64,000 nt of DNA from a virus (lineage: Duplodnaviria; Caudoviricetes). Of the stretch, positions 8,138-57,476 are shown piece after piece. Under the pieces are notes generated by a model, which had not been told where the DNA came from, ran no database searches, and saw only the letters and a list, made by a program, of their open reading frames with translations. The translations under genes and the position numbers were made by a program. The stretch covers positions 1 to 64,000 of the IMG/VR virus record IMGVR_UViG_3300006852_000005, one strand, 5' to 3'. How positions within the stretch are numbered: the stretch's first letter is position 1; every line of letters begins with the position of its first letter.

Positions 8138-8270
8138 TCCAGGGACGAACGGTCTGGGAACAGCGTTCTAAGTGATGTCGCGTCGAAGTCGAGTCGTAGA
8201 CGCAGGGGAACGCCGCGGAGGCTATGGGTTTGAGGCCTCCACCTAAACATCATAACGATAGGAGTCGATC

Positions 8271-12470: not shown

Positions 12471-12563
12471 CAAATCTTGTCATGCACTTGATATAATGAC
12501 TGGCGTACCACAAACACAGAGACGTAGCACCGGAAACATAGTCCCCAACGCTAGGAGAACATA

Positions 12564-12830
12564 ATGACCGAGCCTGTGGCTCCTGAGGCACCGGCTGAGC
12601 GTCGGCGTGGGCGGCCTCGTCCCGAAGCTACGATCGAACGCGATCGTCAGGTGTTCGATGCCCTCGCGGATGGCCCGCTGACGAAGAAGGAAATCGTCGA
12701 GAAGACCGAACTGCCGGCCAACGCCGTCTACCTGTCGATCTACCGACTTCGCACTGGTGACGCGCCGAAGATCTCCAAGGTCGACGGCAAGGCCCACACG
12801 TGGCAGCGCGTCGAGGGTGCCGTCCTCTAG
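12564..12830 (+). CDS. Small winged-helix DNA-binding protein with AT-hook-like RRRGRPR
   Basis: RRRGRPRP followed by LTKKEIVEKTELPANAVYLSIYRL. Confidence 0.7.
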   Translation: MTEPVAPEAPAERRRGRPRPEATIERDRQVFDALADGPLTKKEIVEKTELPANAVYLSIYRLRTGDAPKISKVDGKAHTWQRVEGAVL

Positions 12831-23360: not shown

Positions 23361-24070
23361 GAAGCAATACGTCCCGGTGTCGAGTAGTAGATTTCAAGAA
23401 CACTACCACCATCGGTGTTTGCCGTGTTCAGCGGCGCACCGGAGTTCTGAATCGCGCGAAGACCTACGTAGTCCGTTGTGCCGTTGAGGAGCGCGGCACC
23501 GGCTGCCTGAATCTGACATGAACCGGTCGCAGGAGTCTGTAGCGACTGACCGGCGCGTGTGCCGGTGCCACTTGTTGTTCCGTTGGTGTTAATGCCGGCA
23601 AACCGTCGTGATGTCGCGTTGGCGGTCCAAACGACGCGACCAACACAGTAGTACCACCCCGGAATCTGAGCGATGACACGATCGGGTGTACCTGTCTTGA
23701 ACCAACCTAGCGGATCATAGTCAACCGTGTCGAAGTTGATGAACGCTCCAGAGCCCGCATCGGCGATCGACTGTGGTGTGTTCTGGATGAGCCTGACGAC
23801 AAGTTCACCCTCGTCGAAGAAGTTACCCAACTTGCCAATGACGTACACAGCCTCGTTTGGCACGATGAGGCACATCACGCGTGCGTTGAGGTTGATGCCA
23901 CCGATCAAGTTGATCACAGACACCGGTGCGTCGTCACCGTCGATGAGCGCCTGAGCTGACGCACGTGAGATGTCGATGTTTGAGATGCGTCCCGGACGTA
24001 AGATCCACTTCAGCCCGAGGACCTTGGCGTTTTCGACGATCGCCTGCACAAGGAGTTGGGTTTCGTCCAT
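23357..24070 (-). CDS. Minor tail / receptor-binding protein
   Basis: C1q-like beta domain (FDTV.YD, PGWY, QNSG); last tail gene. Confidence 0.6.
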   Translation of the reverse strand: MDETQLLVQAIVENAKVLGLKWILRPGRISNIDISRASAQALIDGDDAPVSVINLIGGINLNARVMCLIVPNEAVYVIGKLGNFFDEGELVVRLIQNTPQSIADAGSGAFINFDTVDYDPLGWFKTGTPDRVIAQIPGWYYCVGRVVWTANATSRRFAGINTNGTTSGTGTRAGQSLQTPATGSCQIQAAGAALLNGTTDYVGLRAIQNSGAPLNTANTDGGSVLEIYYSTPGRIAS

Positions 24071-25140
24071 TACGCGTACGCCCTCACGAGGGTATGAGTC
24101 ATCAATCCATTGGGGTTAAGATCGAGTGACCACGCGATCTCAAGCCACTGGGAACCGTCGAAGATGCAGACGTCATATGAGTCGTGTCGTGGATCAGGTG
24201 CTGACGAGAACGTCGCACGCTCGACAACCAGTGATCGCAGTCCGATGTTCCGCGCGACGGCGACCGCTTGCGCGTTGTTAGTGAGCTGGACATCTGTGAC
24301 ACTGGCAATGACGAATCCGCGATTCTGGATGGAGTGTGGCGCGGACGGTGGAATGTCATATGATCCAACGATCGGCGCGTCGCTAGCGCTGTCACTGTTC
24401 GATACCACGATGAAACGATTAGGCGCGGTCAGGATGTCTGTGGTGCTTGAAATGCTGTCCTGAATGATGCGCTTCTCGGTGTCGAAGTCGATGTTAGCCT
24501 CAGCTGCCGCTGGATCGATCGTTCGCACCATGCGGAACAGTCCATTGTTGTCGATCCAAGCGGTCTGGTAGTCACCTTGGGTTGCCAGCGTGTCGAGGAT
24601 CTGACCTCGCTGTGACCCAATCGACGTTGATACACTCGCAAGATATGGACTTGTCTCCACACGAATAAGTATGTCGAAGTCAGTTAAGATGCGTGAGATC
24701 GCGATCGTCACGCTGTCTTGACTTGTGAATGACTTAGAGATCGGCTGATCGATCATGAACATCTCATCAACGAGTTGCACGTTGGCTTCGTTGCCGCCGG
24801 TGGACACCTGCTGTAGGTTATCGGTGAACATATAACGACCCAGCGGGAAGCGCACACCACTCACGACCATAAACAACGCGACCCGGTCGGTGATCGGATT
24901 GATCGCAGCTGTGTCGGCGACCGTCAGTGACATGTTAAGTTGACGCTTGATGATACGTGAGATGTCGTGTGTCAGCTGCGCGTTCGTGATGTATGGGTTC
25001 AGGTCATTGTAGTTCTCGCCCGTCACACCGTTGTAGTGCTGAAACACGTAAGACAGTGTACGAACGCCGAAGCCATCGGTTAGCTCGAGAAACGGGCTAC
25101 GTTCCTTGGTGACGTATGGTACAAGGCCAGGCCATGTCAT
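24070..25140 (-). CDS. Minor tail protein (baseplate hub-like)
   Basis: FPLGRY, DPRHDSYD; position after the tail genes. Confidence 0.65.
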   Translation of the reverse strand: MTWPGLVPYVTKERSPFLELTDGFGVRTLSYVFQHYNGVTGENYNDLNPYITNAQLTHDISRIIKRQLNMSLTVADTAAINPITDRVALFMVVSGVRFPLGRYMFTDNLQQVSTGGNEANVQLVDEMFMIDQPISKSFTSQDSVTIAISRILTDFDILIRVETSPYLASVSTSIGSQRGQILDTLATQGDYQTAWIDNNGLFRMVRTIDPAAAEANIDFDTEKRIIQDSISSTTDILTAPNRFIVVSNSDSASDAPIVGSYDIPPSAPHSIQNRGFVIASVTDVQLTNNAQAVAVARNIGLRSLVVERATFSSAPDPRHDSYDVCIFDGSQWLEIAWSLDLNPNGLMTHTLVRAYA

Positions 25141-41986: not shown

Positions 41987-42841
41987 CTACGAACCCTCAA
42001 AGTCTGTGAACTTACGCCACAGATCTTCATCGTCGATGGTCTCTAGGTTTTTGTACACAACTGCCTTCTTAGCCTTGCTAAGTGATTTCCACTCATCACG
42101 AGTCATGCCGTGAAGAAAGAACTCGTCTGCTTCGTTCGCAAATTCCGAATCGGTCAGTTGGTTGAGGTAGTTAGCTTCCTCATCCGTGACGTACCCACGG
42201 TTCTCGGCGATGTCATCAAGCTCGCGCTCACGTGCGCGCTGCGGACCCTCGATCTTGCGACGTAGTTCGTTGTGTCGCGCGTTTTCCGCGTCGGTGAGGT
42301 AGCTGTTGTCGAGCTTGTTCTCAAGACGCTTGAACTCAGCGATATCAGAATCAGATGCATCTTTAGCAAGTGATTGAAGTCCCTTAAGCTCGTCGTGTTC
42401 TGCACTTGAGAGACCTTCATCACTCTCAAACTGACGCTCAAGCTGATGCTGACGAGCTACGTTATCTGCATGAGTCGGACCCTCATCTTCTGTGTCATAA
42501 GATGGCGACGGCGAACCATGAAGCTTCTTACGTAACGCGTTGTGACGCTCAGCTTCCTTACCACGAAGGTGACCTGTCTTACCCAGCTTGCTCTCAAGTT
42601 TGTCGTACTCTTCCTGCTCGGACGGCGAGAACCTGCTGACGGCCTTCTTGATGAGCTTACCGAGGCCACTACCCGGCTTGTCAGTCCAGCGTCCGTGGTC
42701 ATCACGTGGCTGTCGCTCATTAAAGTCGAACGCAGTCGTATCAAGACGGGCACGCAACGAGGCCACGATCGACGCCGGATCGCGCTGAATAGTCTTAGCA
42801 ATGCGAAGAGCTAACGCACGGCGCTGGTCTAATGTGGTCAA
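41987..42841 (-). CDS. Head-associated protein; protease-derived N-terminus plus helical repeats
   Basis: RRALALRIAKTIQRDPAS, QPRDDHGRW, repeated E..RHN.LR.K. Confidence 0.75.
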   Translation of the reverse strand: MTTLDQRRALALRIAKTIQRDPASIVASLRARLDTTAFDFNERQPRDDHGRWTDKPGSGLGKLIKKAVSRFSPSEQEEYDKLESKLGKTGHLRGKEAERHNALRKKLHGSPSPSYDTEDEGPTHADNVARQHQLERQFESDEGLSSAEHDELKGLQSLAKDASDSDIAEFKRLENKLDNSYLTDAENARHNELRRKIEGPQRARERELDDIAENRGYVTDEEANYLNQLTDSEFANEADEFFLHGMTRDEWKSLSKAKKAVVYKNLETIDDEDLWRKFTDFEGS

Positions 42842-43040: not shown

Positions 43041-45839
43041 TTAGTTACCCTGACTTGGGTGCTTACGATCATGGTCGGCGAGCAGCGCACGCAACTTCTT
43101 CAGCGCCGCGACCTCACCGGCGTACTTGTCCACGTCAGGCGCGGACGCAGCCTTGCTAACGGCGCGTCGCAACTCACCGATCTCCAGTCCGGTCAGGCCA
43201 TCTAGGTTCTCGAGGTTGGACGTCTTCATAAGATCGACGCCGCCACTTGAACCTCGGTGTAGTCGGTTACCGACCTCACCCGGCTTAGGTCGAGCCTTTG
43301 GCGGGTTAGTGTTCGGTGTCTCAGGATCGTAGTTCCACTTCTCGTACTTCTCCTTGAGAGCACGTAGGCTTTTCTCTTCACCTGGGTACCGAGGATCGAG
43401 CTGATCGGGCTGCAGGAAGTGGTTCACGCGATCGATCAACTCATTACGATCTGAGCCATCCAGCTTCATGAAGTCTTCGCGTGTCGTAATCTCCTGTCCA
43501 GCCTTGAACAGGTGAACGTTGCCACCCTCGTCGCGTGGTAACTGCTTGCTACCCGGACCCGACGTAGGCGATGACTTCTTATAGCCCTCAACGTCACTTA
43601 GGCGTCCACCCATCTTAGATGACCATGGCTTCGACTTATCACCACCATCAAGCACGCTTAGGATGTCATCGTCACTGAGATTCTTCCACTCAGCACGGTT
43701 ACTCCGAGCGCGCTTGAGGCCATCACGAATCTGGTCAGGAGAGCTCTTACCCGGGCTTAGACCCTGATCGGTGAACCACTGATTGAGGTGAGCCTTCTGC
43801 TCGAGGGAAAGAACCTTGCCAACAGCGCCACCGCCAGGGCCATCAGTCCACTGACCGTCGCCATCACGTGGCTGACGCTTCCAGTGATCGTCGTTGAACG
43901 CCATCATACCCGACGCACCACCGACCCACTTCCGCGGGATGAGTCGCGTCTGACCCAACGCCGCGGCGCGCTTCATGATGTGCGCACGGACGGCAGCGCG
44001 CTTACTCGGGTTGGCGCGGCCGTAGGCGTGGATCGCGTCGCGCAAGCTGGCGACGTCCGGGATCGGAAATGAGCCATCAGGCAACGCGTCACCCGAAGCG
44101 GCTAGCGCCTCACGCTCAGCCTCCGAGAACTGACGAAAGGCCATGCGCGCCTTGATCGCCGCAAGCTTAGATGCCGGATCACGTTGGATCGACTTGGCCA
44201 GACGAAGCGCCAGCGCGCGACGCTCATCAATGCTGGTGAACTCGGGTACGCCGTTCTCGTCGTGTACGAAGCGAACCGGCACCGCGGCAGCCACCAACTG
44301 TCCGTTCTCAACTCGCACCGAGGACGCGACACGTGCCATCGGGAAGCCTGGCACGGGAACGAGTAGTGCGGCGGTCAGTTCACGCCAGCCGGGCCGATCC
44401 TGCTGTGCACGCCAGTCACCCGATAGCTTGCAAGCCATCGCGCGCTGGATCATCGCAGGTGTGACGTCGGGTAACACGGCGCCGGCGATCCAGACGCCGT
44501 GCTTGTTCTCGCCGACGCAAGCCGTGGCGAACAGCGAGCACGAGTTGTCGTAGTGCTCCTGCGCCTGACCGGCTGTGATAGGTCGCTGAGTCGTCGCGTG
44601 GTCACAGTTCATGGTGATTGGGCCAGTTACTACACGGCCACCGTCAGAGACGATCGTCTCACCCGACATGAACCGCGAGTAGTCGACCTTACCCATCGGC
44701 GCGTAGACAGTCCGGTCGTGGAACGACCTGTGATGCACCTTGGCAGGTGCCAGGTAGCCGTATAGGCGACCGGAGTCTGTGATGGTCAGTGCGCCATACG
44801 GCGTCACGTCGGTCGGCTCATCGAACCACGCACGTGGCGGCGTGTCGGTGAACTCCATGACGTGGCCCGCGGCAACCAGCGCGTCCTCACGATCTTCAAG
44901 CTCGTCAGACGTGATTGGCTGCGCCATCACCTCGCGCATCGCCTCGAGGATCGGCATGTGAAACTCGACCAGCGCACCGGCCACGACGTCATCGTTCTTG
45001 ATCAGGCTGAGACGCGCCTCGGTGAACGCCGGAAACTCGACCATCGTCGTACCACGCACGCGACCCGCATTGTAGATCGTCAGCTGTGGCTTCTTAAACA
45101 TGCTGTTGATATCGACTGGTGCGCCAGGCTGCGCCGGTGTTTGTCCCGCTGTCGGCTGATCGTAGACGAACTCGACGTTGGCGTCCTTGACCGAGTCGAC
45201 GTCGACGCTGTTGCCGGACATCACGCCGGCCTTCATGCGACGTGCGACCTCCGCACCATCTGGGTTACCCAGGTCGATGAAGCCACGACCGCGGATGATC
45301 GCAACATCGGGACGTCCACCTGGGTCGGGCTCGCGCCAGACCTGTGTGACGCTGCCGACGCGAACTGACTCGTCGCCCTGGCCACCGTGGCTGGTCACAC
45401 GCTGCCACATGAGAGGCATGCCGTCGGCCGGCGTAAGGTCCCATGAGAGTGAGCCGATCTTGAACATCCGACCGTCGCCGGACTCGATGCCCTCGACAGT
45501 TAGGACGCCGTCCCACGGCGCGGTCTCGGTCTGCGCCTCCATGGTCACGGGCTCAGTGGCCTGGTAACCATCCATCTTGTCATCGGCCATACAGCTGCCA
45601 TCAGGCATCTTGTGATGACCCGGAGGGCAGTTTGACGGCGCGCTAGCCGCAGGAATCGTGTGCATCGGCTGCGCTGGCGCCGTAAAACCGCCACCGGCGG
45701 TGAGGTCTTCCTCACTCGCATAGAGCGCGCGCAGTTGACGAATGGCCTTCACACGTGAGTCGTGTCGTCCGGCAACCGAGTCATCGGCGTCCTTGACGAC
45801 CACGAAGTGGCCGTTGCGCTGCTCGATGTGCCACGGCAT
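43041..45839 (-). CDS. Capsid maturation protease polyprotein with DUF6582-like and cargo modules
   Basis: EGIESGDGR.F, PLMWQ, PAF.EAR, SGDWR, LPDGSFPI..AYGRA. Confidence 0.8.
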   Translation of the reverse strand: MPWHIEQRNGHFVVVKDADDSVAGRHDSRVKAIRQLRALYASEEDLTAGGGFTAPAQPMHTIPAASAPSNCPPGHHKMPDGSCMADDKMDGYQATEPVTMEAQTETAPWDGVLTVEGIESGDGRMFKIGSLSWDLTPADGMPLMWQRVTSHGGQGDESVRVGSVTQVWREPDPGGRPDVAIIRGRGFIDLGNPDGAEVARRMKAGVMSGNSVDVDSVKDANVEFVYDQPTAGQTPAQPGAPVDINSMFKKPQLTIYNAGRVRGTTMVEFPAFTEARLSLIKNDDVVAGALVEFHMPILEAMREVMAQPITSDELEDREDALVAAGHVMEFTDTPPRAWFDEPTDVTPYGALTITDSGRLYGYLAPAKVHHRSFHDRTVYAPMGKVDYSRFMSGETIVSDGGRVVTGPITMNCDHATTQRPITAGQAQEHYDNSCSLFATACVGENKHGVWIAGAVLPDVTPAMIQRAMACKLSGDWRAQQDRPGWRELTAALLVPVPGFPMARVASSVRVENGQLVAAAVPVRFVHDENGVPEFTSIDERRALALRLAKSIQRDPASKLAAIKARMAFRQFSEAEREALAASGDALPDGSFPIPDVASLRDAIHAYGRANPSKRAAVRAHIMKRAAALGQTRLIPRKWVGGASGMMAFNDDHWKRQPRDGDGQWTDGPGGGAVGKVLSLEQKAHLNQWFTDQGLSPGKSSPDQIRDGLKRARSNRAEWKNLSDDDILSVLDGGDKSKPWSSKMGGRLSDVEGYKKSSPTSGPGSKQLPRDEGGNVHLFKAGQEITTREDFMKLDGSDRNELIDRVNHFLQPDQLDPRYPGEEKSLRALKEKYEKWNYDPETPNTNPPKARPKPGEVGNRLHRGSSGGVDLMKTSNLENLDGLTGLEIGELRRAVSKAASAPDVDKYAGEVAALKKLRALLADHDRKHPSQGN

Positions 45840-46170: not shown

Positions 46171-49100
46171 TCATGAGGCTTGCTGGGCCAAGGTCATGTC
46201 CATCTGCTCTTCGATGATGTCCAGCACACGGCGACTGATGCCGATCCAGCGTGGCTTGCGCATTTCATTGAACCGAGTCTCCATCGCATCCAGCGCCGAG
46301 CGCGCCTTATCGATGTCAGACCGGCGGAACATCTCATCGTATGGCACAAACGATGGCACGAACGGCGACTCGATCTGATCCATCCAACCCTTGATCAGCT
46401 TGTCATCAGGGATCTGCGTCGAGTCCGCCGGCTTTGCGGTCGACCACCCGAGACCGTGATCAATGCCTACCGGATCACCGTTCTTATCGATCATCCAGTT
46501 GTACTCGTGACGATCACCGTTCAATGTCATAAGATCGAGTAGTCCAAGCAGTCGACCTTTTCGACTCTTAAGAATCTTGTCGCGCTCGGGATCGGTGTTG
46601 TACTCGTAGTCATCACGGCCTTCGATGTCAAAGTGATCACCAGCCGGCGTGCCGTCAACGAGCTCCATGTGCACCGTTGTTTGGTTCACACGTTCGGCCG
46701 CAGGCACCGGTGCGCCGATCCGGATACCCAGTTCGGCGACGAGGTCCTCAGCGTCTGTGATCTCTTTCCCGGTGCTGGACCCCCAGCTCTTACTTTCCTT
46801 ACGAATGTACGAGCCATCTTTTGTGGTGACCTTACTGACGATCCCCACCTGACCACTCGAGATGTCGTCGATACTGACCTCGGTACCACTCGTAAGTTTC
46901 GTCAGTCGATCAAGTGACGATGCAAGTTCAGGTGATGATGTGGTGTCAGGTGGTGACGACACCTTCACACGCTTAGGTGCACCCTTGGCGACCGGTGCCG
47001 TAGCCTCAGGCACGGACAGTCGCTGCCACCTGACGTCCGCGCCGCCACCGTTGTCACCCGACAACCTAAGCCAGCTGAGGAGATACTCCTTCGAGTCGAA
47101 CGTCGAGTGTGCGTCATCCCCGTATTCGTTGTATGCGGAGATCGTACCGTCGCCGTTCGACACGAGATCATGTCGGCTACCGTGTGTGTCGACGCCGGAC
47201 AGGACGGTCGTACCATCCTTCGTGTTGCGCGCGTTCCAGACGTGATCGGCCAACTCCATGATGTGAAGGTTACCTGGGTTGGTGTCACGCCATCGACCGT
47301 GAGCGTCTCGTGGCTGATTGGGGTCAAAGTCAAAAGGGACGACATCACCGACCGCCGCCTCGGTCGGACGACCTGGGTGGCGACCCATGGTCGTTCCCGT
47401 GGCGAGCTGGTGGTAGTACTGACACAGGCCACCGGCGCGAACTCCGACGTACTTACGCATGTGCTTGATGCAGCGTGTGCCATCGCCCTCGGTGTTCCAC
47501 CGGATCTTAGCCGCACCAGGACCGTAGACCCAGTAGTCACGAAGCTGATGACCAGCCGAGCCAGGTGACTTGACACCACGCTCCTTAGCCCAGGCGATGT
47601 ACTCGTTTAGCCAGCCTTGGACGTCCGGATGATCAAGATCGAAAACCGACTCAAATTCGACCGTATAGCTACCAACGGCCGGCGTGCGTTCGGGCGCCTG
47701 GGGAGGTTCAGAGGTCTCAAGTTCAGACCTATCTGTACCAGTTTGTCCAGCTCCAAGGGGGAAGTCATAGTTCTCGCCTGCGAAGGCCACGCGGATGCGA
47801 TCAAATGTGATCGGACCGACCTGATCCACCAACGGAGTAAGATCGGTAGCGGTCTCGGTCAACGTGATGTGCGGGATCCACGTCTTGAATGAGTGTGCCG
47901 ACTGATCGATGACGTCGTGCACCTGCTCACAGATGAACTCGTATGACTCCGTCAGCTCATCACCCTGCACGAGCAGCACCGTGCACTCTTCACGATCCGG
48001 CTGAGCGTCACCTGGGTTAAAGAGTGCGAGCCCAAAACCTTCGGCGTCGATGACATCCAGCGCCGATGCGGCAGCCTCGATCCGACTAAGGATCTGCTCC
48101 TCGTTTTCCTCGGTGATGTCCGCGGCCTCGCCTAAGTACTTGATCGTACAGTGAAGCTCGCCGGCTGGAAGACCACCATGCACAGCGAGACGACCCGCGT
48201 CATCCTCAGACGGGACCAATGCGATCATCGCACCGGTATGTACTACAGCTGCAGCTGTAAGATCTTCAACGTTATTCATTACTTCTAACTCGATCACCGG
48301 AGTATCAGAGTTAGGCAGCTTACTGATGCCCAAGACACGCATGCGCTGATCCCGACCAAGAACTACCTCTTGCGCCTTGATGTAGTGATCATTAGCCTCG
48401 GGATCGTCAGTGTTCGTGGGGAACTTTACCGCGTGCGTCCCCGCTGGTACTGAAATCTTAAAGACCACAGCACCTGGTTTCGTCGCGTAGATCTGGGTCG
48501 CGACGTCACCATTGGCGCTTGTTGACGTGTATGCCTTGTCAGATAAGACGTCGCCAACCTTGAGATTCTTATATTGATCTTGTACACCTTCAAGACCACG
48601 CCACACGGTAATCGGTTTAGTGACCGTTCCGCGTGCGACGACATCGTCCAGTGCCGCAACCTGCGTCTCAGCGATCTGAGCATCTGACACGCGATCAAGT
48701 GCCGGTGGTCCGTTGCGTAGACGATCGTTTAACGCCTTGAAATTCATGCGATCTGGGTTGTAGCCGTTACCCGTGTAGGCGTTAAGTTCCTTGATATCGG
48801 TCGGTTCGAGTGGATGCGTGATCGCATCCAGCGCATCGGTACCGGTTAGACCTTCAGTCTTGGATAGAGCAGCCTCGTCGTGACCTACGATCTCCGGAGT
48901 GACGTCATCGATCGTGCTAGGCACGTCAGCCTCAGTCAACTGTGGACGAGCGTTCTGATGCGTCTCAGGAACGTTACCGATGAACGTACCGGCGCGTGGC
49001 TCGACTTCAGGTGTCTGCCAGTCACCCGTCTTGACCTTGTCGTAGGCCTGCTTCTTGGTGAGAGGCTTACCCTTTCCCCACGAGTCACCCTTACGCTTCT

Positions 49101-49596
49101 CGTGGAGAAACTTCTTGGTGGACTGATCCCATCGCATACGCTCGTTATCGCGCTGAGCGACGACCTCGCCGTCGGGAATCGTGGCACGGTGGATCGCCTT
49201 CGTCGGGGCGAACTTCTTCAACGCCTTCACGACACCGGAGATACCACCACCTGGTGTCTCGGTCCATTGACCATCAGCATCGCGAAGTTCATGTTTCCAC
49301 TGATCACCACCGGCTGCGGCCGTCATTGCCGCGGTGATCGAGCTCTCACCACTGAGGAACGCGTCCACCTCGGCGTCTGTGAAGCCACCGTCATCGAACT
49401 CCTCATGAGCGTTGGCCTCATCCTCCTGTGCCTGACGCTCCTCCGGAGTAAGGGTGTGCGAGATGTCGCGGAAGGGATCATCCAGCGGCAACTCATCGGT
49501 CATCAGGTAGTGCTGAGCCTCCGCGAGCGTCATACCACGAGGCATCGCAGCGATCTCAGAGAGGTCGAACGTCTCATCAACGTGGAAGTTACTCAT
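46171..49596 (-). CDS. Multidomain head protein: VIP2-like ADP-ribosyltransferase, 2H phosphoesterase, PI3/4K-HipA-like kinase
   Basis: YT..N..LR, VWRG, YTSTS, AQEVVL; LHCT and PHIT; NGDRHEYN...IDHG. Confidence 0.85.
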   Translation of the reverse strand: MSNFHVDETFDLSEIAAMPRGMTLAEAQHYLMTDELPLDDPFRDISHTLTPEERQAQEDEANAHEEFDDGGFTDAEVDAFLSGESSITAAMTAAAGGDQWKHELRDADGQWTETPGGGISGVVKALKKFAPTKAIHRATIPDGEVVAQRDNERMRWDQSTKKFLHEKRKGDSWGKGKPLTKKQAYDKVKTGDWQTPEVEPRAGTFIGNVPETHQNARPQLTEADVPSTIDDVTPEIVGHDEAALSKTEGLTGTDALDAITHPLEPTDIKELNAYTGNGYNPDRMNFKALNDRLRNGPPALDRVSDAQIAETQVAALDDVVARGTVTKPITVWRGLEGVQDQYKNLKVGDVLSDKAYTSTSANGDVATQIYATKPGAVVFKISVPAGTHAVKFPTNTDDPEANDHYIKAQEVVLGRDQRMRVLGISKLPNSDTPVIELEVMNNVEDLTAAAVVHTGAMIALVPSEDDAGRLAVHGGLPAGELHCTIKYLGEAADITEENEEQILSRIEAAASALDVIDAEGFGLALFNPGDAQPDREECTVLLVQGDELTESYEFICEQVHDVIDQSAHSFKTWIPHITLTETATDLTPLVDQVGPITFDRIRVAFAGENYDFPLGAGQTGTDRSELETSEPPQAPERTPAVGSYTVEFESVFDLDHPDVQGWLNEYIAWAKERGVKSPGSAGHQLRDYWVYGPGAAKIRWNTEGDGTRCIKHMRKYVGVRAGGLCQYYHQLATGTTMGRHPGRPTEAAVGDVVPFDFDPNQPRDAHGRWRDTNPGNLHIMELADHVWNARNTKDGTTVLSGVDTHGSRHDLVSNGDGTISAYNEYGDDAHSTFDSKEYLLSWLRLSGDNGGGADVRWQRLSVPEATAPVAKGAPKRVKVSSPPDTTSSPELASSLDRLTKLTSGTEVSIDDISSGQVGIVSKVTTKDGSYIRKESKSWGSSTGKEITDAEDLVAELGIRIGAPVPAAERVNQTTVHMELVDGTPAGDHFDIEGRDDYEYNTDPERDKILKSRKGRLLGLLDLMTLNGDRHEYNWMIDKNGDPVGIDHGLGWSTAKPADSTQIPDDKLIKGWMDQIESPFVPSFVPYDEMFRRSDIDKARSALDAMETRFNEMRKPRWIGISRRVLDIIEEQMDMTLAQQAS

Positions 49597-52500
49597 CGCC
49601 ACATCATCCCTGCGTCGACAGCCGCAATGATCTGACTCTCGTCATCCGGCTTAGGTACGATGCGAACACGAACCGTAGCACCACTACCGTTAGGTGTCAC
49701 GCTAAGAATGTGGTAGTAGAGACCGGCGGCGAGCAGCATCTCATTCTCGCCCTTGTGGAGTGAGATCGGCTTGGCCCAGTACATCGGCGTCCCAGGTGGC
49801 GCCTCGATCTCAATCTTGACGTGACCACCGAACGCCGAGTGCCCACCGGTTGACGTCGAACCAAAGCCACCCATCCAGCGCGTCTGGCCGACCATCTTCG
49901 CCAGGCTAGCGTACGACGTAGCCTTGAACGCGTCGAAACCAACACCACGGTGGAGCAACACCGGCTCGATCGAGGGGATCATCGCCGCCTGAGCGTTGTT
50001 CATACTTTGCTCATTCGAGCTGGAGATGCCCTGCACCTTGCCATACAGGAAGGCGTTGATGGAGTGGTAGATACCGCCGGTGTAGTTGGTAATGCCACTC
50101 TTAGCGGAGCCTGAAGGTTCCTGCCCGGTCGCCTTCTTAAAGGCCGCCAGCGCCTTGTTAAACCACGAGGTAGCCGAGCTGGTGTCCAAAACATTGTACG
50201 AATACTTGTTCGACTCCTCAAGCGTCGGTAGGTTACCCTCAACGCCTGCCATGAACTTCGGCGGCGGTGGCTTCGGGATCGGCAGGTTGTGCAGGATCGC
50301 GTAGCCGGCGGGTGTCTGCAGCCAGTCGGTGATCTTCTTCTCGAAGAGGTGATCGTCAGGCTTCGAGACCTTGGCAGCGCCGACCTCATCGATAACGCGC
50401 AGCGTCTGCATCTTCGTGAGGTTGTTGTTGTCCGCGATCGTGATCAACGCGGCCCAGATGTCCTGGCTTGAGCTCTTGAGGTACGTCGCCGGCTGGGACT
50501 TGAACGCCTGGTAGACCTGCTTCTTCTGCGCATCACTTAGGTGGGAGATGTCCCCGCCACCCATGTCGATCGTCCCACCACCGGGCACCGTGACGACGCT
50601 CGCTGAGTGCGACGTCTTAACCGTTGGGACCGTAGCCTCCGGCTTGTACCAGCCGTAAACGGGTGCTGAGTTAGCGAGCGTCGCTACCTTGTACGACTCG
50701 GTATTCGTCGTCGTCCACGTGTTGTTGGCTGGGCTCCAGGTCTGAAGCTGGAACTCAGACCCAGGCTTGTGATAGACGATTCGATGTTGACCATTAGACG
50801 AGTACGCGAGAACGGTCGTCGCCTTATACTGACTCTTCTTAGAGAGCGGACCCCACGCTGCGACCTTCGGACCCTTGGGTACGTCGGTTCCATCGGGAAG
50901 CGTGATCGTTCCGAAGATGCCGGTTGGCTTCGGTGGCGGCGGTGGCGGTGGCGGCGGTGGCGGCGCCGGAGGTGTCGTTGGATATTTCAACGCCACAGGT
51001 GCTGGCTTTGGTGGCTTAGGATGAGCCACCGGCGTCGTCGCGTCGTACCACTTCGTCTTCACAACCTTAGCCAGCGACGCCAACTTGTACTGCTCGCCGT
51101 CGACGTAGATCCACTTCTTGTTGGTGTCATCCCACTTGTGTAGGTAGAAGAACCCGTAGTTGGCCGACAGCCTGTACTTGCCATCTTCCGAGTACGCCAG
51201 AGGCTGGCCGCTGTTCTTCTTGGCGGCCAGGTCCTTCCACACCTTAACCTCGGGACCCTTGTCCACCGTCGTACCGTCGGCTAGTGTCAGCTTCGACTTC
51301 GGTGTTGATGAGGCAGCAGGCGCGATCTTTGTCGGACTTAGGTCAATCGCGTAGTTCCAATAGTCCGAGTGGTCTTGCGCCAGCTTCTTGGGATGGTCAC
51401 CCTCGGCGAAGAGCTCGTACTTGTTCGTGGCCGGATTGTACTTGCGAAGCTGGTATCCACCGAAGTTGGAGACCAAGATAAGTTCTTTGCTAGGTGACAC
51501 CGCGTGTAGCTTGTACCCGGCGTCTGGGTTGACGTCACCGATCGACTCCCAGCCATCCATTGGGATCGTGTAACCGGTCGACACTGGTGTTCCGTCCTTG
51601 AGTGGGAACACGTTAGGTGTCGTGCTTAGTCCGGTGAACTTATCCGTGATCGGTGGCGGAGAGTTTGGTGACTGTTCCGCGTGAACCCAACTCTTGAAGA
51701 AACCCACCTTGTTAGTTGCTGTGAGGTACGGATCCTTACCCGAGCCAGCAAGTTCATACTTATGCTTGTCAGGATTCCACGTTGAGACAAAGAACCAACC
51801 ATCGGTTGAAAACAGTTGGTGTTGAAGATCTGTCGTTACGGCGTGCAGCTTATGTCCAGGAACAACGCTCTTATCCTTAAGAATCTGCTGCCAGTCTTCA
51901 GGCTGAATATCCTCCGCAAGTAGGACCTCGGTGCCGTCCGGCAGTGTGTCGATCGGTGACGCGATCGACACGTCCTTAACCTCACCCTCGGTCGACACCG
52001 GTGCGAGTGTCCACTTCGTGTTCTTGCCGAGGACGTTGTTGTCCATGAAGTTTGTGAGTTGTTCCTCGGTGGTGAACTCGTATGACGTAGGCACATCTGT
52101 GCCTTCATCATTGTGGTAGAACACCTGCAGCTTCTTAAAGCCTTCACCATCACCATCTTGCTTGATCTTATAGGTGAAGGTTCCACCTTCCTTGACGTAC
52201 GTTCCGGTGGCAATGATCTTCGCGTACGTAGCCGAACCAAACGATGGTGTCGCGTTCCAGACCTCGTCTGCGGTGGCATTACGTGAACCAACGGTCGGCG
52301 ACAACGTCGGATCACTACCGCCCGGCGTACCCGCGTACCACTTATCGGTCATGTTCCACGTGTCGACCGGGAAGTGATTTAGCAACGACGACTGTGGTTC
52401 CGCCGCGACGATCTCACTCGTCCAGTTCGGGCTGTCGGCGGTGCCGTCGTTGGTCTCGAGAACAAACTTGCTGTCATCGTCATACGTGACTCGCCACTTA

Positions 52501-55500
52501 CCGTCCTCACGCGTCGCGACGACGTCACCGGGAACCCACGGCAACTTTTCTAGATCCGCAAACGACGTGACCACCTGCGGTACATGCACACCAGGTGTTG
52601 GCGTCGGTGCTGGCTTAGCGCCAGACAGTGATGCGTAGACCGGAGCTCCGGTCGGCGTCGGGTATATCTTCCACGAGTCGCCGTTGTCGTCGTTCATCTT
52701 AAGGTAGGCGTCGACCTCGTGTGGCTCAACCTTGACGAGCGCCACACCGTTCTTAAACACAAACATGTGTTCGCCAAGCTGACCCTTTTCAACGGTAAGA
52801 AGATCACCGTTCTCAAGATTCTTGTTGGCGATCACCGAGTAGCTCTTCACATCGGGATCGGCCAGGGCCTTCATGATCAGTGAGGTGCCGGGATGCTCGT
52901 CAGACGACGGCGGCATCACGGTCGGCTTCTTGACGTCAGGATGCGCGATGACGTAGTCGAGACCCTTCTTCGTCTTCAGCCACTTCTTAAGCTTGTTCGT
53001 GTACGAGCTGTTCGTCGGCGCGCTGGGCGGCAACCCAGTGTCCAGCGCCGCTAGGATCTGCATGTTCGTCAGGTGTTCGTAACCGACACCCGCATCTGAG
53101 GTCTTGAACGACTGCAGTGCATCCCAGATCGCCTCAGGCTTGTTGTGCCACTTCGCACCGTTGGCATTGAAGTACGTCTTAAGAACACCGATCTGCGCGG
53201 GCGACATGCTGGTGATGTCAGCACCTGGGTTCGGCGCAGGCTTCGGTGGATCGACGTTGACGAGATGCCACTTTGACGTACTTGTGTGATCTTGCGCCGT
53301 GAACGCTAAGTCATTTGCCGGGATGTTTGTCTCAAGGGTCATCCAGTCACTGGGGTTGTTCGTTGATTGCTTCTGGATGCGAAACTTCTTCATGTCTGCG
53401 TTAGGTAGTGATGTACCACCCGCAATGATGCGGAAGTTACCCTCAGGTGTCGTCACCGTCGCAATGACTTGGTTCTTGACGAACGTAGCCATAGACTCAA
53501 ATGTGAACTTTTGCTTCCACGCTTCCGAGGTAAACGTTGTCTCGTTGTCACCACCGTAGGCACCGGTTGACACAGCACCGTCAATCGCCGCATTGTGCTG
53601 TGAGATGTTCGCCGGCACACCAAAGTGCGGAACGGCTACGTCACCCTTAAGCCAACTCTTAACACTCTCGTTTGAGTGATACTTGGTGACATCAGCGAGA
53701 TCATCTTCCCACTCGGCGTCAGACGCGCCTTCACCCGGTAGACCCAGCTTGCTGACCACCGTCCACTTACCGGTGCTGTTCTGAATCTTACTGAGCTCGA
53801 TCTGACCGGTGCTGATGTTGTACGTCATCGCCAGGCTACCGTCTGTCGTCACTCCGATCGTCGTACCGGGTGCGTTAAACAGTCCGGCATCCACCATGTC
53901 GTCAACGCTCAGCTCATCCTCAGGCTCCCACCATGTATCTGAACCGACATTACCGTCAAGATCTTGATTGAACAACGAGCTAGGATTCCACGCAATGTCA
54001 GCACCACCAGCTTTGTCGATCCACCACTGGTTAAACGCATCATTATCATGAAACTGAACAGATGACTTACCATCACCGGTCTCTTCGTACAATGCAAGCG
54101 GATAGTCAAACGATGTCTTACGAATCGTAACCGGGTTACCATTCTTATCATTTCCAGCGATAAGAATATTACCCGGCTTTGCGGTCTTAGCTGCGTCAAG
54201 AACATTCGTGCCAAGTTCAGCGTGCTTGGTGTCGACCGGATACGCCATCTTGACGGCAGATGTTCCCAACTTAGCCTGACGCTGTGCGGTCGTCTTCTTG
54301 TAAAGATCGCTAAAGTCCTTTTCCAGCGTATCACGACGCTGCATGATCGCCTTAAGGAACGTCTCAGGATCGTTACCGTAGGCGCTTAACCATCCGTTCT
54401 TGGCGGCACCCTGCGCGTACGAACCGAACATATCCCGGATGTCATCGTCAGAGAGCTCGGTCGCGTCAAAGATAACCTGCGCGATCGCATGATCTTCATC
54501 CGGATCGTGCATCTGGATGTTCTCGCCGTTGGCATATGCCTTCCACATGTCCGGGTACGTGTGCTTGTTTGGACTGAGTGGGCTCCACGGCTTGTAGTCC
54601 GGATCAAGCTTGTCCTTGGCGTAGAACCTGAAGGCGTGACCCTTGTCGATGGACGAGATGTGACCGTTTGGTAGTCTGATGAACTGACCGGAGTGTGCGT
54701 CGTTGTTGCCCAGGAGCCAGTCGAGGACTTGCTCCTTCTGCATGTCACGCACATCTTCTTCAGACAAGTTCGTCGGCTTAAACGAACCGTTCGGGAACGC
54801 GTCCTGGGCGTCGAACATCGCCTGCACGGCGGCCGGCTTGCCATCGACGTCCATCACCCACGTCTTGGGACCCTTAAGCCCGATGGCTGCCTGCAGCTTG
54901 TTCGCCGCGACGTCGAGCTCAAGCACAGGATCATCGTTAGGGTTCTTCTTACGACGCACCAACCAGCGCTGACCCTTGTCATCGATGTAGATCGGCGACG
55001 CGGAGACTCCCGTGGCCGCGTTCCCGATCTTCTTCATCTTCGCGGGATCAGGCTTGTGTGCGTTCATCACCGCCACGATGGAACCCGGCACACCAGGCGG
55101 CGATGAATACGACTTAATGACAACCGGCGGTGAAACCGGTGGTGGAGCTGTTGACTTCGGTGCGGATGCAGGCTGACGCCAGTCCCACTTCGCGTCCTTC
55201 GCCATCTTATACGTGTCGGCCTTGGTGTCATACGAGACCGAGTACCACGCATCAGTCACAGTGCTCTTCTGCTGCAGCTGGTACTTCTTCATCCCCGCAC
55301 TCCAGCGGAGTCGATGAGTGCCATCAGCACTCACGGCGACGACCGTACCATCCTGGTGTTGCTTGTGAATGGTCGCAGGAATGAACTTCTTAGTTGACGG
55401 CGCAGATGATGTGACCTTCGCTGGCTCAACGTTTTCAAGAGGCGTTGGCACCGTACTTGGAATGGTAGGCACCGCGTTGGGTACGCCCGGTGGTGAATCC

Positions 55501-57476
55501 AGCTTCATGTTCTCCGGCACCGGCGTGGTAATGGTCGTGTCGGAGTCGGGACCCTTGTTCTCAAAGCCAGAGATCTTATGCTTAAGCGGCTCAGACATCG
55601 GCGACGAGCTGATGCCATGCGTCAGCTTGGAGATCCAGCCCTGCTGCTTATCCGTCAGGTTGTCCCAGGTCTCCTGGGAATCGATCGCGCCGACGGCATC
55701 CTTCAGCTGCGTGAATGTTGGGCTGTTCATCTTAAAGAAGTCAGCAAGTGGACCCTTACTGATGAACCGCCCGTCCTTGCCGCGCGGATGCTGCTCAGGC
55801 TGCCACTTACGGTGAACGCCACTCGCCGTCAGGGCCATGTCCATGGCGAACTTGTACGACTGCGACTTAGGTGGCTTCGGCGGATCAGCCGGGATGATGT
55901 CATTGGTATCGGTCGTCGAGTCACCGGTGTCGAAGATGTCGAAGATCTTCGGAATGCTGTCGGCCAGCGCCGGGTGGAAGTCACCATCACGCAACATTGT
56001 GGCGATCTGCTGCCTCGTCAGCCACAACGCGTTCATAACCTCGGCGTGATCGACCTCAGGCTCAAACTGACGTGGCGCCTCAGCGGCGATGTTCGTGTAC
56101 TTCCACGGTTCAGGCTGACCCTCAATAGGCTGAACGGTTACGTGCGTACCCAGGTGCTTAACGTCATCCAGGTACTTCTGCGAGACGTGCAGTTCCTCAT
56201 ACGTCTCGCGAGCCGCACCCTGGGCCGGAGTCTCATACTGATCCATCGCACCGCCGGGAAGCTGCCACTTCCCGGTGTTGGAGACGGCCTTACCACGCTG
56301 GATGAAGAGGAAGCTGTCTTCACCGTCCTCGTTTGGCGCCTTGATCATGACACCCGAGGCGCCGTACGTTCCCCAGATGCGCCACTGCTGGTTCTTAACG
56401 AGGTACTTGTCGCCCGACTTACCACGCAGTGCCGCAGGTAGGATCACGAACTTGTTGGGATCCTTGGCGATCTCGGCGATCTGCTCAGGTGTGCGACCAC
56501 CGTACTTGCGCTCAATGCGAGCCTGCTCAGCCTTCTTCATGGCTGCAAGCTGCTCAGGTGTCGGTGGCGCCTTCTTCTGCTTAGGTACCTTAAAACCACC
56601 AAGCAGCTTTGAGATCTCGACGTCACTCAAGTCATCGATGAACTCACCACTATGAGGATCCCGCGGATGATCTTTAGGATCCCAGTTAGGCTTACCCTTT
56701 GCCCACGGGTATCCCGCGGACATCATGACGAGCTCTTCCTCATCATCCGCGGTGACGTCAGGGAACAACTCGTATGTCACAGAGCAGCGACAGTTGATCG
56801 TCTCGTCCAGTGGTCCACGAGGATCTCCTGGGTACTGCATCTGTGAACGACCAACCGTGAACGGCTCGGAGATCTTTTGTGTCTGACCGTCAGCCTCATC
56901 ATGTGTTGGCCGTGTGTGCGAGTCGTTGGTCGCCAGCCAAGACTTCTTGCCGTCGGGATCCACCATCGCAGCCTGAGCATATGAGCCAGCTTCTAGCGCA
57001 GCGTGGATCTCGGTACGTGCGATCGTCAGTGCCTTGGAGTCTGAGACGTTACCGACGTGCTTGATGCGCGCGGCGATCTGCTTGACGTCCTCATCTAGCG
57101 CGTAACCCTTGATGAGCTGCGTGTGGATCGCGTCCCAGACGTCCTGGCTTAGATCTTGAAACCGGTTGGCGGCCAGCTGCAGGTGTGTCTCCACGAAGTC
57201 TTCATTTAGGAGGAACGCCTTATCCCCCAAACCAAGGTCCTGACGCACCCTCTCAGCACCGTCGAGTACCTGCATGCCCAGATATCCCAGCAAGGGTCCG
57301 TCCACCTGCTGAGCCCACAGGGAGGGCAGCTCATTGAGGTCTGACATCGATACCCGCGTGGTCTGCTTACCGACCAGCGCGCGCATCACGGCACGCCACG
57401 CCTTCTGGATCAACGCAGCTAGTGTGTCAGCGCGCTCATCCTTCTCGTCGCGCGACCACCCCCGTGTGTCCGCCAC
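49593..57476 (-). CDS. MuF minor head protein fused to Nudix, kinase-like, repeat and VIP2-like ADP-ribosyltransferase domains
   Basis: IARTE, TRPTH, PGDP, INCRC; PGGAMDQYETPAQGAARETYEE; NNDAHSGQ...IDKG; HRG, STS, ENE. Confidence 0.9.
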   Translation of the reverse strand: MADTRGWSRDEKDERADTLAALIQKAWRAVMRALVGKQTTRVSMSDLNELPSLWAQQVDGPLLGYLGMQVLDGAERVRQDLGLGDKAFLLNEDFVETHLQLAANRFQDLSQDVWDAIHTQLIKGYALDEDVKQIAARIKHVGNVSDSKALTIARTEIHAALEAGSYAQAAMVDPDGKKSWLATNDSHTRPTHDEADGQTQKISEPFTVGRSQMQYPGDPRGPLDETINCRCSVTYELFPDVTADDEEELVMMSAGYPWAKGKPNWDPKDHPRDPHSGEFIDDLSDVEISKLLGGFKVPKQKKAPPTPEQLAAMKKAEQARIERKYGGRTPEQIAEIAKDPNKFVILPAALRGKSGDKYLVKNQQWRIWGTYGASGVMIKAPNEDGEDSFLFIQRGKAVSNTGKWQLPGGAMDQYETPAQGAARETYEELHVSQKYLDDVKHLGTHVTVQPIEGQPEPWKYTNIAAEAPRQFEPEVDHAEVMNALWLTRQQIATMLRDGDFHPALADSIPKIFDIFDTGDSTTDTNDIIPADPPKPPKSQSYKFAMDMALTASGVHRKWQPEQHPRGKDGRFISKGPLADFFKMNSPTFTQLKDAVGAIDSQETWDNLTDKQQGWISKLTHGISSSPMSEPLKHKISGFENKGPDSDTTITTPVPENMKLDSPPGVPNAVPTIPSTVPTPLENVEPAKVTSSAPSTKKFIPATIHKQHQDGTVVAVSADGTHRLRWSAGMKKYQLQQKSTVTDAWYSVSYDTKADTYKMAKDAKWDWRQPASAPKSTAPPPVSPPVVIKSYSSPPGVPGSIVAVMNAHKPDPAKMKKIGNAATGVSASPIYIDDKGQRWLVRRKKNPNDDPVLELDVAANKLQAAIGLKGPKTWVMDVDGKPAAVQAMFDAQDAFPNGSFKPTNLSEEDVRDMQKEQVLDWLLGNNDAHSGQFIRLPNGHISSIDKGHAFRFYAKDKLDPDYKPWSPLSPNKHTYPDMWKAYANGENIQMHDPDEDHAIAQVIFDATELSDDDIRDMFGSYAQGAAKNGWLSAYGNDPETFLKAIMQRRDTLEKDFSDLYKKTTAQRQAKLGTSAVKMAYPVDTKHAELGTNVLDAAKTAKPGNILIAGNDKNGNPVTIRKTSFDYPLALYEETGDGKSSVQFHDNDAFNQWWIDKAGGADIAWNPSSLFNQDLDGNVGSDTWWEPEDELSVDDMVDAGLFNAPGTTIGVTTDGSLAMTYNISTGQIELSKIQNSTGKWTVVSKLGLPGEGASDAEWEDDLADVTKYHSNESVKSWLKGDVAVPHFGVPANISQHNAAIDGAVSTGAYGGDNETTFTSEAWKQKFTFESMATFVKNQVIATVTTPEGNFRIIAGGTSLPNADMKKFRIQKQSTNNPSDWMTLETNIPANDLAFTAQDHTSTSKWHLVNVDPPKPAPNPGADITSMSPAQIGVLKTYFNANGAKWHNKPEAIWDALQSFKTSDAGVGYEHLTNMQILAALDTGLPPSAPTNSSYTNKLKKWLKTKKGLDYVIAHPDVKKPTVMPPSSDEHPGTSLIMKALADPDVKSYSVIANKNLENGDLLTVEKGQLGEHMFVFKNGVALVKVEPHEVDAYLKMNDDNGDSWKIYPTPTGAPVYASLSGAKPAPTPTPGVHVPQVVTSFADLEKLPWVPGDVVATREDGKWRVTYDDDSKFVLETNDGTADSPNWTSEIVAAEPQSSLLNHFPVDTWNMTDKWYAGTPGGSDPTLSPTVGSRNATADEVWNATPSFGSATYAKIIATGTYVKEGGTFTYKIKQDGDGEGFKKLQVFYHNDEGTDVPTSYEFTTEEQLTNFMDNNVLGKNTKWTLAPVSTEGEVKDVSIASPIDTLPDGTEVLLAEDIQPEDWQQILKDKSVVPGHKLHAVTTDLQHQLFSTDGWFFVSTWNPDKHKYELAGSGKDPYLTATNKVGFFKSWVHAEQSPNSPPPITDKFTGLSTTPNVFPLKDGTPVSTGYTIPMDGWESIGDVNPDAGYKLHAVSPSKELILVSNFGGYQLRKYNPATNKYELFAEGDHPKKLAQDHSDYWNYAIDLSPTKIAPAASSTPKSKLTLADGTTVDKGPEVKVWKDLAAKKNSGQPLAYSEDGKYRLSANYGFFYLHKWDDTNKKWIYVDGEQYKLASLAKVVKTKWYDATTPVAHPKPPKPAPVALKYPTTPPAPPPPPPPPPPPKPTGIFGTITLPDGTDVPKGPKVAAWGPLSKKSQYKATTVLAYSSNGQHRIVYHKPGSEFQLQTWSPANNTWTTTNTESYKVATLANSAPVYGWYKPEATVPTVKTSHSASVVTVPGGGTIDMGGGDISHLSDAQKKQVYQAFKSQPATYLKSSSQDIWAALITIADNNNLTKMQTLRVIDEVGAAKVSKPDDHLFEKKITDWLQTPAGYAILHNLPIPKPPPPKFMAGVEGNLPTLEESNKYSYNVLDTSSATSWFNKALAAFKKATGQEPSGSAKSGITNYTGGIYHSINAFLYGKVQGISSSNEQSMNNAQAAMIPSIEPVLLHRGVGFDAFKATSYASLAKMVGQTRWMGGFGSTSTGGHSAFGGHVKIEIEAPPGTPMYWAKPISLHKGENEMLLAAGLYYHILSVTPNGSGATVRVRIVPKPDDESQIIAAVDAGMMWR

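Follow-up and report, generated by a model that had tools for sequence, protein, structure and literature searches.

The head module of the virus record IMGVR_UViG_3300006852_000005 (Duplodnaviria; Caudoviricetes) raises the question of what purpose a single polypeptide of 2627 amino acids (aa), encoded right after the portal gene, might serve for the phage. A sequence-only reading of this open reading frame (ORF; P0001, the giant protein in what follows) had proposed a MuF protein with three enzymatic payloads, namely a Nudix hydrolase, a kinase-like domain and a C-terminal ADP-ribosyltransferase (ART). The window, that is the whole stretch of 64,000 nucleotides (nt) analysed, corresponds to bases 1-64000 of a linear record of 82,754 bases with an estimated completeness of about 80%. 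Here we propose, with a probability of roughly 0.72, that the giant protein is a virion-borne, host-injected polyvalent effector, and that the phage behind it is probably lytic and infects a Streptomyces-like actinomycete. The protein itself is an elaborate form of a known kind of phage weapon, with putative substrates and targets.

The frame is open over 2627 codons, from a GTG at 57476 through a TGA at 49593. It begins 6 nt past the stop of the portal gene, is preceded at 9-14 nt by a G-rich, ribosome-binding GGGG(T)G stretch, and its stop overlaps the ATG of the next gene as ATGA. Since collinear homologs exist (P0003, P0004, P0153 and P0162), an assembly or fusion artefact is unlikely to be the origin of this ORF. 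When the gene was compared with 50,697 phage records by megablast, none matched, and a tblastn search with the first 1092 aa found no record covering at least 80% of them. The head genes follow each other in the order portal, giant gene, 1143-aa gene, 932-aa gene, 284-aa gene and major capsid protein (phrog_777, 3e-133), with small ORFs of 70 and 66 aa also in the module; on the portal gene, the Pfam model Phage_portal stays below its cut-off.

The two ends of the giant protein are well defined by profiles, in agreement with the earlier calls of a MuF domain and a C-terminal ExE ART. PF04233 clears its cut-off of 29.6 bits with a score of 57.3 (63.5 when the genome was searched), phrog_2468 matches at 8e-35, TIGR01641 stays below its cut-off, and the N-terminal 280 aa align to homologs; with a profile above the curated cut-off and a gene beside the portal in the head module, the protein thus falls within the MuF/SPP1 gp7 family. 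At the C-terminus, PF03496 reaches 41.3 bits (cut-off 23.4) and NCBIfam gives nothing. This domain aligns to Lmo0066 (E 4e-7) and weakly to the C3 exoenzymes, with R2510, S2540-T-S and E2577-N-E2579 falling on the R, STS and Q/ExE catalytic positions of Lmo0066 and C3. Profile and Arg, Ser-Thr-Ser and E-x-E motifs together place it among the R-S-E ADP-ribosyltransferases of the C3/VIP2/Alt type, of which those with ExE, as a rule of thumb, target arginine. A PHROGs search agrees with Pfam's MuF, NUDIX and ART calls.

The Nudix hydrolase was likewise recovered, with 46.6 bits for PF00293 (cut-off 21.1). Its box, GX5EX7REUXEEXGU, lies at aa 408-431, where G409, E415, R423-E424 and E427-E428 are present, and its closest solved relative is mycobacterial RenU (PDB 6uuf; E 3.5e-15). 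The similarity is full-length, as residues 71-228 of the insert described below align to RenU 4-153, including the N-terminal extension. RenU hydrolyses ADP-ribose, FAD and NADH, spares NAD+, and is a partner of the kinase PknG (PMC4401782). Compared with the nearest homologs, the domain is an insertion: residues 1-280 align to residues 1-287 of P0003, P0004 and P0006, and the alignment resumes at residues 548-556 of the giant protein and 265-270 of the homologs, so that these alignments skip the approximately 270 Nudix-bearing residues in between (aa ~281-548), which are absent in the closest homologs. A short peptide, HPR..G.F, is duplicated in such a way that it brackets the insertion (aa 270 and aa 563).

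Relatives of the insertion were sought separately among proteins of 1444-4598 aa and among proteins of 145-464 aa. The latter search found one relative only, and the former found 7 others, every one of them with NUDIX and ART (7/7). MuF is present in two of these large proteins, WXG100 in one and a 2H domain in one, and a divergent kinase-like domain follows the Nudix in five of the seven (18.7-35.9 bits with a hidden Markov model (HMM) of the family, in a small database); P0153 and P0158 have all four parts, MuF, Nudix, kinase-like domain and ART. Because all seven large relatives carry an ART, this Nudix clade travels with ARTs, and often also with a kinase-fold domain. Thus, the earlier suggestion of an ADP-ribose writer and a potential ADP-ribose or signal-nucleotide hydrolase in one chain holds at the level of domain identity, given RenU as best Nudix match and the constant ART companion. 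We found no description of a linkage between RenU-like Nudix domains and ARTs in the open-access literature.

The kinase-like domain is supported by fold and family, and not by profiles. HipA_C (PF07804) scores 14.1 bits against a cut-off of 30.5 (E 0.037) and PI3_PI4_kinase (PF00454) 12.8 bits against 27.1 (E 0.11), both on the catalytic loop, and NCBIfam returns nothing on this part. A profile of the family gave nothing significant against PDB sequences, with the HipA catalytic loop at only E 0.4-1 and a match to manganese superoxide dismutase (E 0.12) that was dismissed as chance. Of the domain calls made earlier, three therefore pass curated cut-offs in profile searches and the kinase-like one does not. 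An AlphaFold model of this part, built from an 18-sequence alignment, has a predicted local distance difference test score (pLDDT) of 89.8 and a predicted template modelling score (pTM) of 0.88, and Foldseek returned kinases only, with VPS34 first at 3.6e-5. VIA-align gave Z scores of 14.5 for PI4KII-alpha (229 residues aligned, root-mean-square deviation 3.8), 14.1 for CtkA, 12.3 for LepB, 11.5 for Golgi casein kinase, about 11 for VPS34 and 10.6 for HipT. Of 999 Foldseek-ranked chains, 993 had a Z of at least 5 and the 50 entries listed were all kinase-fold proteins, which identifies a two-lobed kinase fold. The domain shares with PI4KII-alpha, CtkA, LepB, VPS34 and HipA/HipT some 200-230 aligned residues (Z 14.5 to 10.6), a D-x-H-x-x-N/Q catalytic loop and an I-D-x-G metal loop, but differs from these atypical kinases in being only 9-17% identical, in lacking a profile above cut-off and in having Arg in place of the beta-3 Lys.

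The domain belongs to a large family. An exhaustive phmmer search found 1100 cluster representatives (clusters at 50% identity) at E<=1e-3 and 102 at E<=1e-30, nearly all of them long multidomain proteins. When the family alignment was used as query, 240 viral-contig stretches were found to encode a relative, whereas the single domain sequence as query against the viral loci found none. A Pfam scan of the 31 top family members detected ART in 17 (MuF and ART in 12, VG15 and ART in 2, WXG100 and ART in 1), transglycosylase domains in 3 and NUDIX in 0. From 80 of the 240 viral loci, 28 ORFs were chosen, comprising the more diverse complete ones and six of a group of about 1529 aa; MuF is present in 17 of these, VG15 in 5, ART in 16 and NUDIX in 2. 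Among annotated phages, the domain is found in gp54 of McProf and in related M. abscessus prophage proteins, as well as in Onyinye gp16 and Phrappuccino gp195 (33-40% identity). This is a large kinase-fold family for which no Pfam or NCBIfam model reaches its cut-off and which occurs mostly in MuF...ART proteins; we found no description of this kinase-fold domain in phage virion proteins in the open-access literature. Kinase-like and ART modules also stand behind WXG100 type VII secretion domains (P0010 and P0154), and Nudix is found among these modules too. The metagenomic protein P0005 (6354 aa) contains several kinase-fold copies, one of which also has Arg at the beta-3 Lys position.

The key residues of the domain are R841 (beta-3 Lys position), D919, N924, D926-A-H928, Q931 and I-D944-K-G-H947. 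Conservation was counted over 169 rows, namely this copy and 168 copies from those 146 of the 150 listed matches whose alignment spans 200 or more residues of the query. D919 and D926 are present in 169/169 rows, H928 in 162/169, N or Q at 931 in 164/169, D944 in 168/169 and K945 in 162/169; the catalytic-loop Asp with its Asn/Gln and the metal-binding Asp of a kinase are thus in place. The sequence-only reading had noted DAH for DRH. This is not a degeneration: the residue between D926 and H928 is A in 60 rows, S in 39, T in 32 and G in 28, and since these four prevail at that position, DAH is the norm of the family and the true deviation is Arg841. Identity to the closest relative P0162, an N-terminally truncated fragment of 1953 aa, amounts to 88% in the kinase-fold domain, 75% in the ART, 74-80% in the helical domains and 49-66% in the repeats, which argues that the kinase-fold domain is under the strongest constraint of all parts.

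The HPR..G.F peptide, here called the tag, could be a cargo tag or a processing signal, although both roles are hypothetical at this stage. Its strict form occurs in 17 of 151 family proteins and twice only in the giant protein, in which copy 2 is the one common to homologs. Elsewhere it lies just past MuF (aa 264-301) or, in proteins without it after MuF, at aa 13-41. A looser pattern, (W/F)x3-4(H/Q)(P/EL)R(D/G)xxG(K/R/Q/E)(F/W), has six in-frame matches in four consecutive head genes, and in the three large ORFs 5 matches were observed against 0.022 expected from shuffles; two more matches in the six-frame translation are out of frame. Most copies have a small-residue stretch 6-20 residues upstream (VAAG, LTASG, MSAG or TAAAGG), and both copies in the giant protein are preceded by a phi-T/A-A-A/S-G stretch; no L-x-K site was seen among the residues ahead of the tags. 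The stand-alone Nudix relative P0160 has no clear tag, and a search of the open-access literature found no description of this peptide.

The long repeat region with a poly-Pro linker noted earlier could be resolved into eight copies of a beta unit of about 110 aa, together some 900 residues, with the proline run at aa 2169-2184. The copies emerged by tiled BLAST and an HMM from five seed segments, as a self-BLAST of the whole protein gave the identity match only; search rounds after the first are circular, and Table 1 gives the first-round E of the divergent copies. A model of the repeat domain is mostly beta (pLDDT 80.8) and matches no known fold convincingly, as Foldseek did not get beyond E 0.14, nor a VIA-wide comparison with 48,161 chains beyond Z 4.6; a novel fold does not follow from this. 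The unit is also present in P0153. Repeat 5 is missing in P0162 (window 51642-51962, minus strand, in the giant gene), so that the copy number there differs from the eight of the giant protein, which suggests gain or loss of repeats, probably by recombination. The helical domain in front of the ART is common to P0006, P0022 and P0024, had no usable match in the ESM Atlas, and recurs in weaker form at aa ~1436-1530, where the two copies match each other at E 2e-4.

In the reading we favour, the MuF domain would bring the chain into the procapsid beside the portal and the protein would exit the head with the DNA, as suggested by SPP1 gp7 and Mu F. The ART might then modify host proteins with NAD+, probably on arginine, by analogy to T4 Alt and VIP2-type enzymes. 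Judging from RenU, the Nudix would hydrolyse nucleoside diphosphates linked to another moiety (NDP-X) of the ADP-ribose type and not NAD+, and since NAD+ would be spared, the ART would keep its supply. The role of the Nudix may be to remove free ADP-ribose or NADH, to degrade host signals derived from ADP-ribose, or to trim the mark set by the ART. The kinase-fold domain is the conserved core of the protein family, keeping the catalytic-loop Asp, the Asn/Gln and the Asp of IDKG, and as the most conserved part it presumably does something, even if phosphotransfer is uncertain given the Arg. The eight beta repeats and proline-rich linkers might act as spacers or binding modules of a beads-on-a-string chain that threads the tail. 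The HPR..G.F peptides would mark module boundaries, and cleavage there may yield MuF, a Nudix with a tag and a tagged piece that spans kinase, repeats and ART.

Several points weigh against this proposal. Packaging, ejection, enzyme activities and targets are predicted from sequence, and the lytic lifestyle is provisional because the record is only about 80% complete. The final Gly of the Nudix box is His430 and no NCBIfam equivalog reaches its cut-off on this part, so that the Nudix substrate is a guess. Among 76 distinct viral-contig ORFs of the family, just 3 have the tag, which makes it lineage-specific, and Pfam identifies no head protease in the module, hence no enzyme for cutting at the tag. 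Most importantly, the ATP-binding beta-3 lysine (WLxK), found in 166 of 169 rows against an R in 2, is replaced by Arg841, a classic kinase-dead change in ordinary kinases, and IDKGQ, with Q in 158 of 169 rows, reads IDKGH here (His947). A sequencing error was ruled out, as the codon CGT is at least two changes away from any Lys codon and P0162 also has Arg. Of the three enzymatic payloads, the three domain identities hence stand, but the kinase activity of the third is open to doubt. It is a serious possibility, albeit one we would still bet against, that the protein carries two catalytic payloads only, with the kinase fold acting as a pseudokinase scaffold or regulator, for instance of the ART, or performing non-kinase chemistry. 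The rarity of the substitution, its fixation in the closest relative, the change to IDKGH and an 88% conservation that fits a functional non-canonical domain would all be accounted for in this way. However, the catalytic-loop Asp, the Asn and the metal-binding Asp are kept, the adjacent Lys843 and Lys844 could stand in for the lost lysine, and the nearest homologs outside the pair (P0003, P0004 and P0006) have Lys at beta-3, so that the family looks active.

A different origin of the whole architecture was also considered. MuF polymorphic toxins, reportedly described by Jamet et al. in 2017, are said to consist of a MuF N-terminus and a variable C-terminal toxin, with an immunity gene, in temperate phages or prophages. 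The giant protein has the N-terminal MuF and a C-terminal toxin-type ART, kinase-like, Nudix and ART modules are also found behind WXG100 in P0010 and P0154, and the small ORFs of the module might encode a cognate immunity protein. It nevertheless seems improbable that it is an interbacterial weapon delivered by the phage-like particles of lysogens, as it is embedded in a complete head module (portal, scaffold-like gene and major capsid) of a phage with polymerase, helicase and nucleases, the next gene, joined by the ATGA overlap, encodes a 1143-aa multi-enzyme protein and not a small immunity protein, and neither an integrase nor a repressor was seen among the scanned ORFs of the window and the rest of the record (about 80% complete). 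We consider it very improbable that the protein is mainly a structural internal head or ejection protein, in which the repeats serve as conduit, spacer or pressure buffer and the enzyme domains are relics: about 900 of the 2627 residues are repeats without enzymatic signature and their number varies among relatives, but the catalytic motifs of ART and Nudix are intact, the enzyme domains are more conserved than the repeats, and the same enzyme sets recur in unrelated delivery contexts. Finally, we speculate that ART and RenU-like Nudix might form a two-step device. In the Legionella SidE family, a mono-ADP-ribosyltransferase and a phosphodiesterase domain in one chain target ubiquitin, so that, by analogy only and with no sequence relation claimed, an ADP-ribose writer and a pyrophosphate cutter share a polypeptide as in the giant protein, which has a Nudix and not a phosphodiesterase. 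ADP-ribose would be placed on a host protein, probably on arginine, and its pyrophosphate cut, leaving a phosphoribose that resists host ADP-ribosyl hydrolases; the kinase fold with its Arg would be no kinase but a nucleotide-binding regulator or non-canonical enzyme of that pathway, and the HPR..G.F peptides would lie at protease sites and serve as capsid-cargo tags, with the three modules set free in the head. In this specific form, the idea is rather unlikely.

The polyvalent effector we favour has clear precedents. Polyvalent proteins (Iyer et al. 2017, PMC5512222), virion-packaged NAD/ADP-ribose enzymes (Iyer et al. 2022, PMC9503650) and MuF fusions (also PMC3482391) have been published, and MuF-ART and MuF-Nudix fusions are predicted to be head-packaged (PMC9503650, PMC5512222, PMC7302621). 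Like the polyvalent proteins described there, the giant protein combines several effector domains in one virion-associated polypeptide, with Nudix, kinase-fold and ART behind MuF in a head module. It differs in that the kinases of that text are a C-terminally truncated Ser/Thr/Tyr-kinase clade from Verrucomicrobia and Bacteroidetes (pro)phages and its Nudix clades are T4 NudE-like and NadM-like, whereas ours is RenU-like; in the main text of PMC5512222 and PMC9503650, as far as available and supplements aside, we found neither a PI4KII/CtkA/HipA-like domain nor a RenU-like Nudix. Closest in architecture are actinophage fusions of MuF or minor capsid protein with ART, which share the head-incorporation N-terminus, the VIP2/exoenzyme-type ART C-terminus and the position after the portal; examples are Percival gp4 and the MuF-VIP2 proteins of Goodman and Johann, all Microbacterium phages (PMC7302621). 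The Mycobacterium phage McProf has the same order of portal, gp54, scaffold and capsid, and the middle domain of its gp54 is 37% identical. In contrast to McProf gp54 and Percival-type fusions, in whose records the middle domain is unannotated, the giant protein is at least twice as long and has the inserted RenU-like Nudix, eight repeats, a duplicated tag and Arg at kinase beta-3. T4 Alt is a head-packaged ART that is injected with the DNA and modifies host RNA polymerase and other proteins (PMC5512222); it has a capsid targeting sequence, gp21 cleavage and a single enzymatic domain, whereas the giant protein has a MuF domain instead. RenU works with the host kinase PknG and the Nudix described here sits beside a kinase-fold domain, but that domain does not resemble PknG, the Nudix forms part of a virion protein, and the RenU substrate range is putative here.

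Of particular interest are the unnamed kinase-fold family, the exchange of Lys for Arg in the best-conserved domain and the tag-flanked Nudix cassette. With 1100 clusters and 240 viral contigs, the family is a constant companion of ARTs in actinophage MuF proteins and is also found in type VII toxins, and the RenU-like Nudix, accompanied by ART in all large proteins found, points to coupled NAD/ADP-ribose chemistry at the onset of infection. The short HPR..G.F peptide, which marks module boundaries and is found again across four consecutive head genes, adds a possible cargo tag or processing signal. No phage proteins act in the cell earlier than head-packaged effectors, and to our knowledge few besides T4 Alt have been studied; should these three leads hold up, they would extend the known phage toolkit for host takeover and counter-defence in actinomycetes.

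Table 1. Features of the giant gene and its neighbours, in window positions.
Feature	Position	Strand	Basis
Whole ORF, MuF-anchored polyvalent protein P0001, 2627 aa (predicted)	49593..57476	-	single open frame; collinear homologs
MuF (SPP1 gp7 / Mu F) head-incorporation domain, aa 117-233	56778..57128	-	PF04233, phrog_2468
Tag copy 1, HPRDPHSGEF, aa 270-279, after ...VMMSAGYPW... (NWDPKDHPRDPHSGEF)	56640..56669	-	sequence
RenU-like Nudix hydrolase, aa 354-511 (Pfam 382-495)	55944..56417	-	PF00293; RenU alignment
Tag copy 2, HPRGKDGRF, aa 563-571, after ...MALTASGVHRKW... (KWQPEQHPRGKDGRF)	55764..55790	-	sequence
Repeat 1, aa 672-782	55131..55463	-	tiled BLAST/HMM
Kinase-fold domain (PI4KII/CtkA/HipA-like), aa 803-1076	54249..55070	-	fold prediction, fold search, family alignment
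Repeat 2, aa 1176-1274, divergent	53655..53951	-	first-round E 1.6e-4
Repeat 3, aa 1309-1420, divergent	53217..53552	-	first-round E 0.055
Repeat 4, aa 1617-1729, divergent	52290..52628	-	first-round E 4.9e-4
Repeats 5, 6, 7, aa 1839-1945, 1952-2057, 2059-2162	50991..51962	-	tiled BLAST/HMM
Poly-proline linker PPAPPPPPPPPPPPKP, aa 2169-2184	50925..50972	-	sequence
Repeat 8, aa 2187-2295	50592..50918	-	tiled BLAST/HMM
Helical pre-ART domain, aa ~2296-2435	50172..50591	-	common to P0006, P0022, P0024
C-terminal ADP-ribosyltransferase, aa 2436-2597	49686..50171	-	PF03496 (ADPrib_exo_Tox), PHROGs
Portal protein gene, directly upstream of giant gene	57483..59171	-	phrog_776 1e-107
Neighbour gene P0161, 1143 aa	46171..49602	-	Pfam, PHROGs, motifs
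Looser tag pattern, giant gene, aa 270 and 562	56640-56669, 55764-55793	-	
Looser tag pattern, 1143-aa gene, aa 104 and 763	49264-49293, 47290-47316	-	
Looser tag pattern, 932-aa gene, aa 656	about 43848-43874	-	
Looser tag pattern, 284-aa gene, aa 44	about 42686-42712	-	

The neighbouring 1143-aa protein, with a probable start at ATG 49596 that overlaps the stop of the giant gene, seems to be a second multi-enzyme protein. Its ART passes Pfam at 38.9 bits and has R335 and STS at 360-362, but A-Q-E412 rather than ExE/QxE. A 2H phosphoesterase domain, absent from the earlier reading, is likely, judging from two H-x-T motifs (H484-C-T and H578-I-T), a sub-threshold match to PF13563 (6.4e-4) and a weak one to Acb1 (0.054). 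The C-terminus is PI3/4-kinase-like, with GDRHEYN at 1029-1035 and IDHG, but scores 25.0 bits against the cut-off of 27.1. The earlier count of two ARTs and two kinases in the head region is thus borne out in part, by a second ART above cut-off and by the kinase motifs, and is weakened by the A-Q-E and the sub-threshold score. The toolkit that P0158 unites in a single chain is here spread over the giant protein and its neighbour.

Neither of the two large proteins next to the giant gave a match in sequence searches of the PDB. The 932-aa protein of the head module (window 43041-45839, minus strand) also has no Pfam match; it matches phrog_859 (2e-70), the C-terminal part of portal-MuF fusion families, and phrog_21470. 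It is a conserved virion-associated domain and could hide the missing head protease. A DUF1360 / phrog_781 gene (window 59176-59556, minus strand) directly precedes the portal gene, in a place where one would look for a terminase. Pfam found no terminase across the whole record, which has an unassigned 511-aa ORF at 3941-5476 of its 64001-82754 part.

The window is phage DNA throughout, with the head and tail module on the minus strand, and encodes DNA polymerase A, an SNF2 helicase, a PD-(D/E)XK nuclease, WhiB and a glycosyltransferase block. The remainder of the record (64001-82754) encodes an SsgA-like sporulation/cell-division protein, a TROVE (Ro60-like) protein and an RNA ligase (5956-6378, 6904-8520 and 12012-12719 within that part), as well as ThyX. 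The presence of WhiB and SsgA in the record hints at a sporulating, Streptomyces-like actinomycete as host. The glycosyltransferase block (window 17396-25140, minus strand) adjoins the tail genes and comprises at least five glycosyltransferase-like genes, an NAD-dependent epimerase/dehydratase and a methyltransferase, and may serve the glycosylation of the virion or of the host surface.

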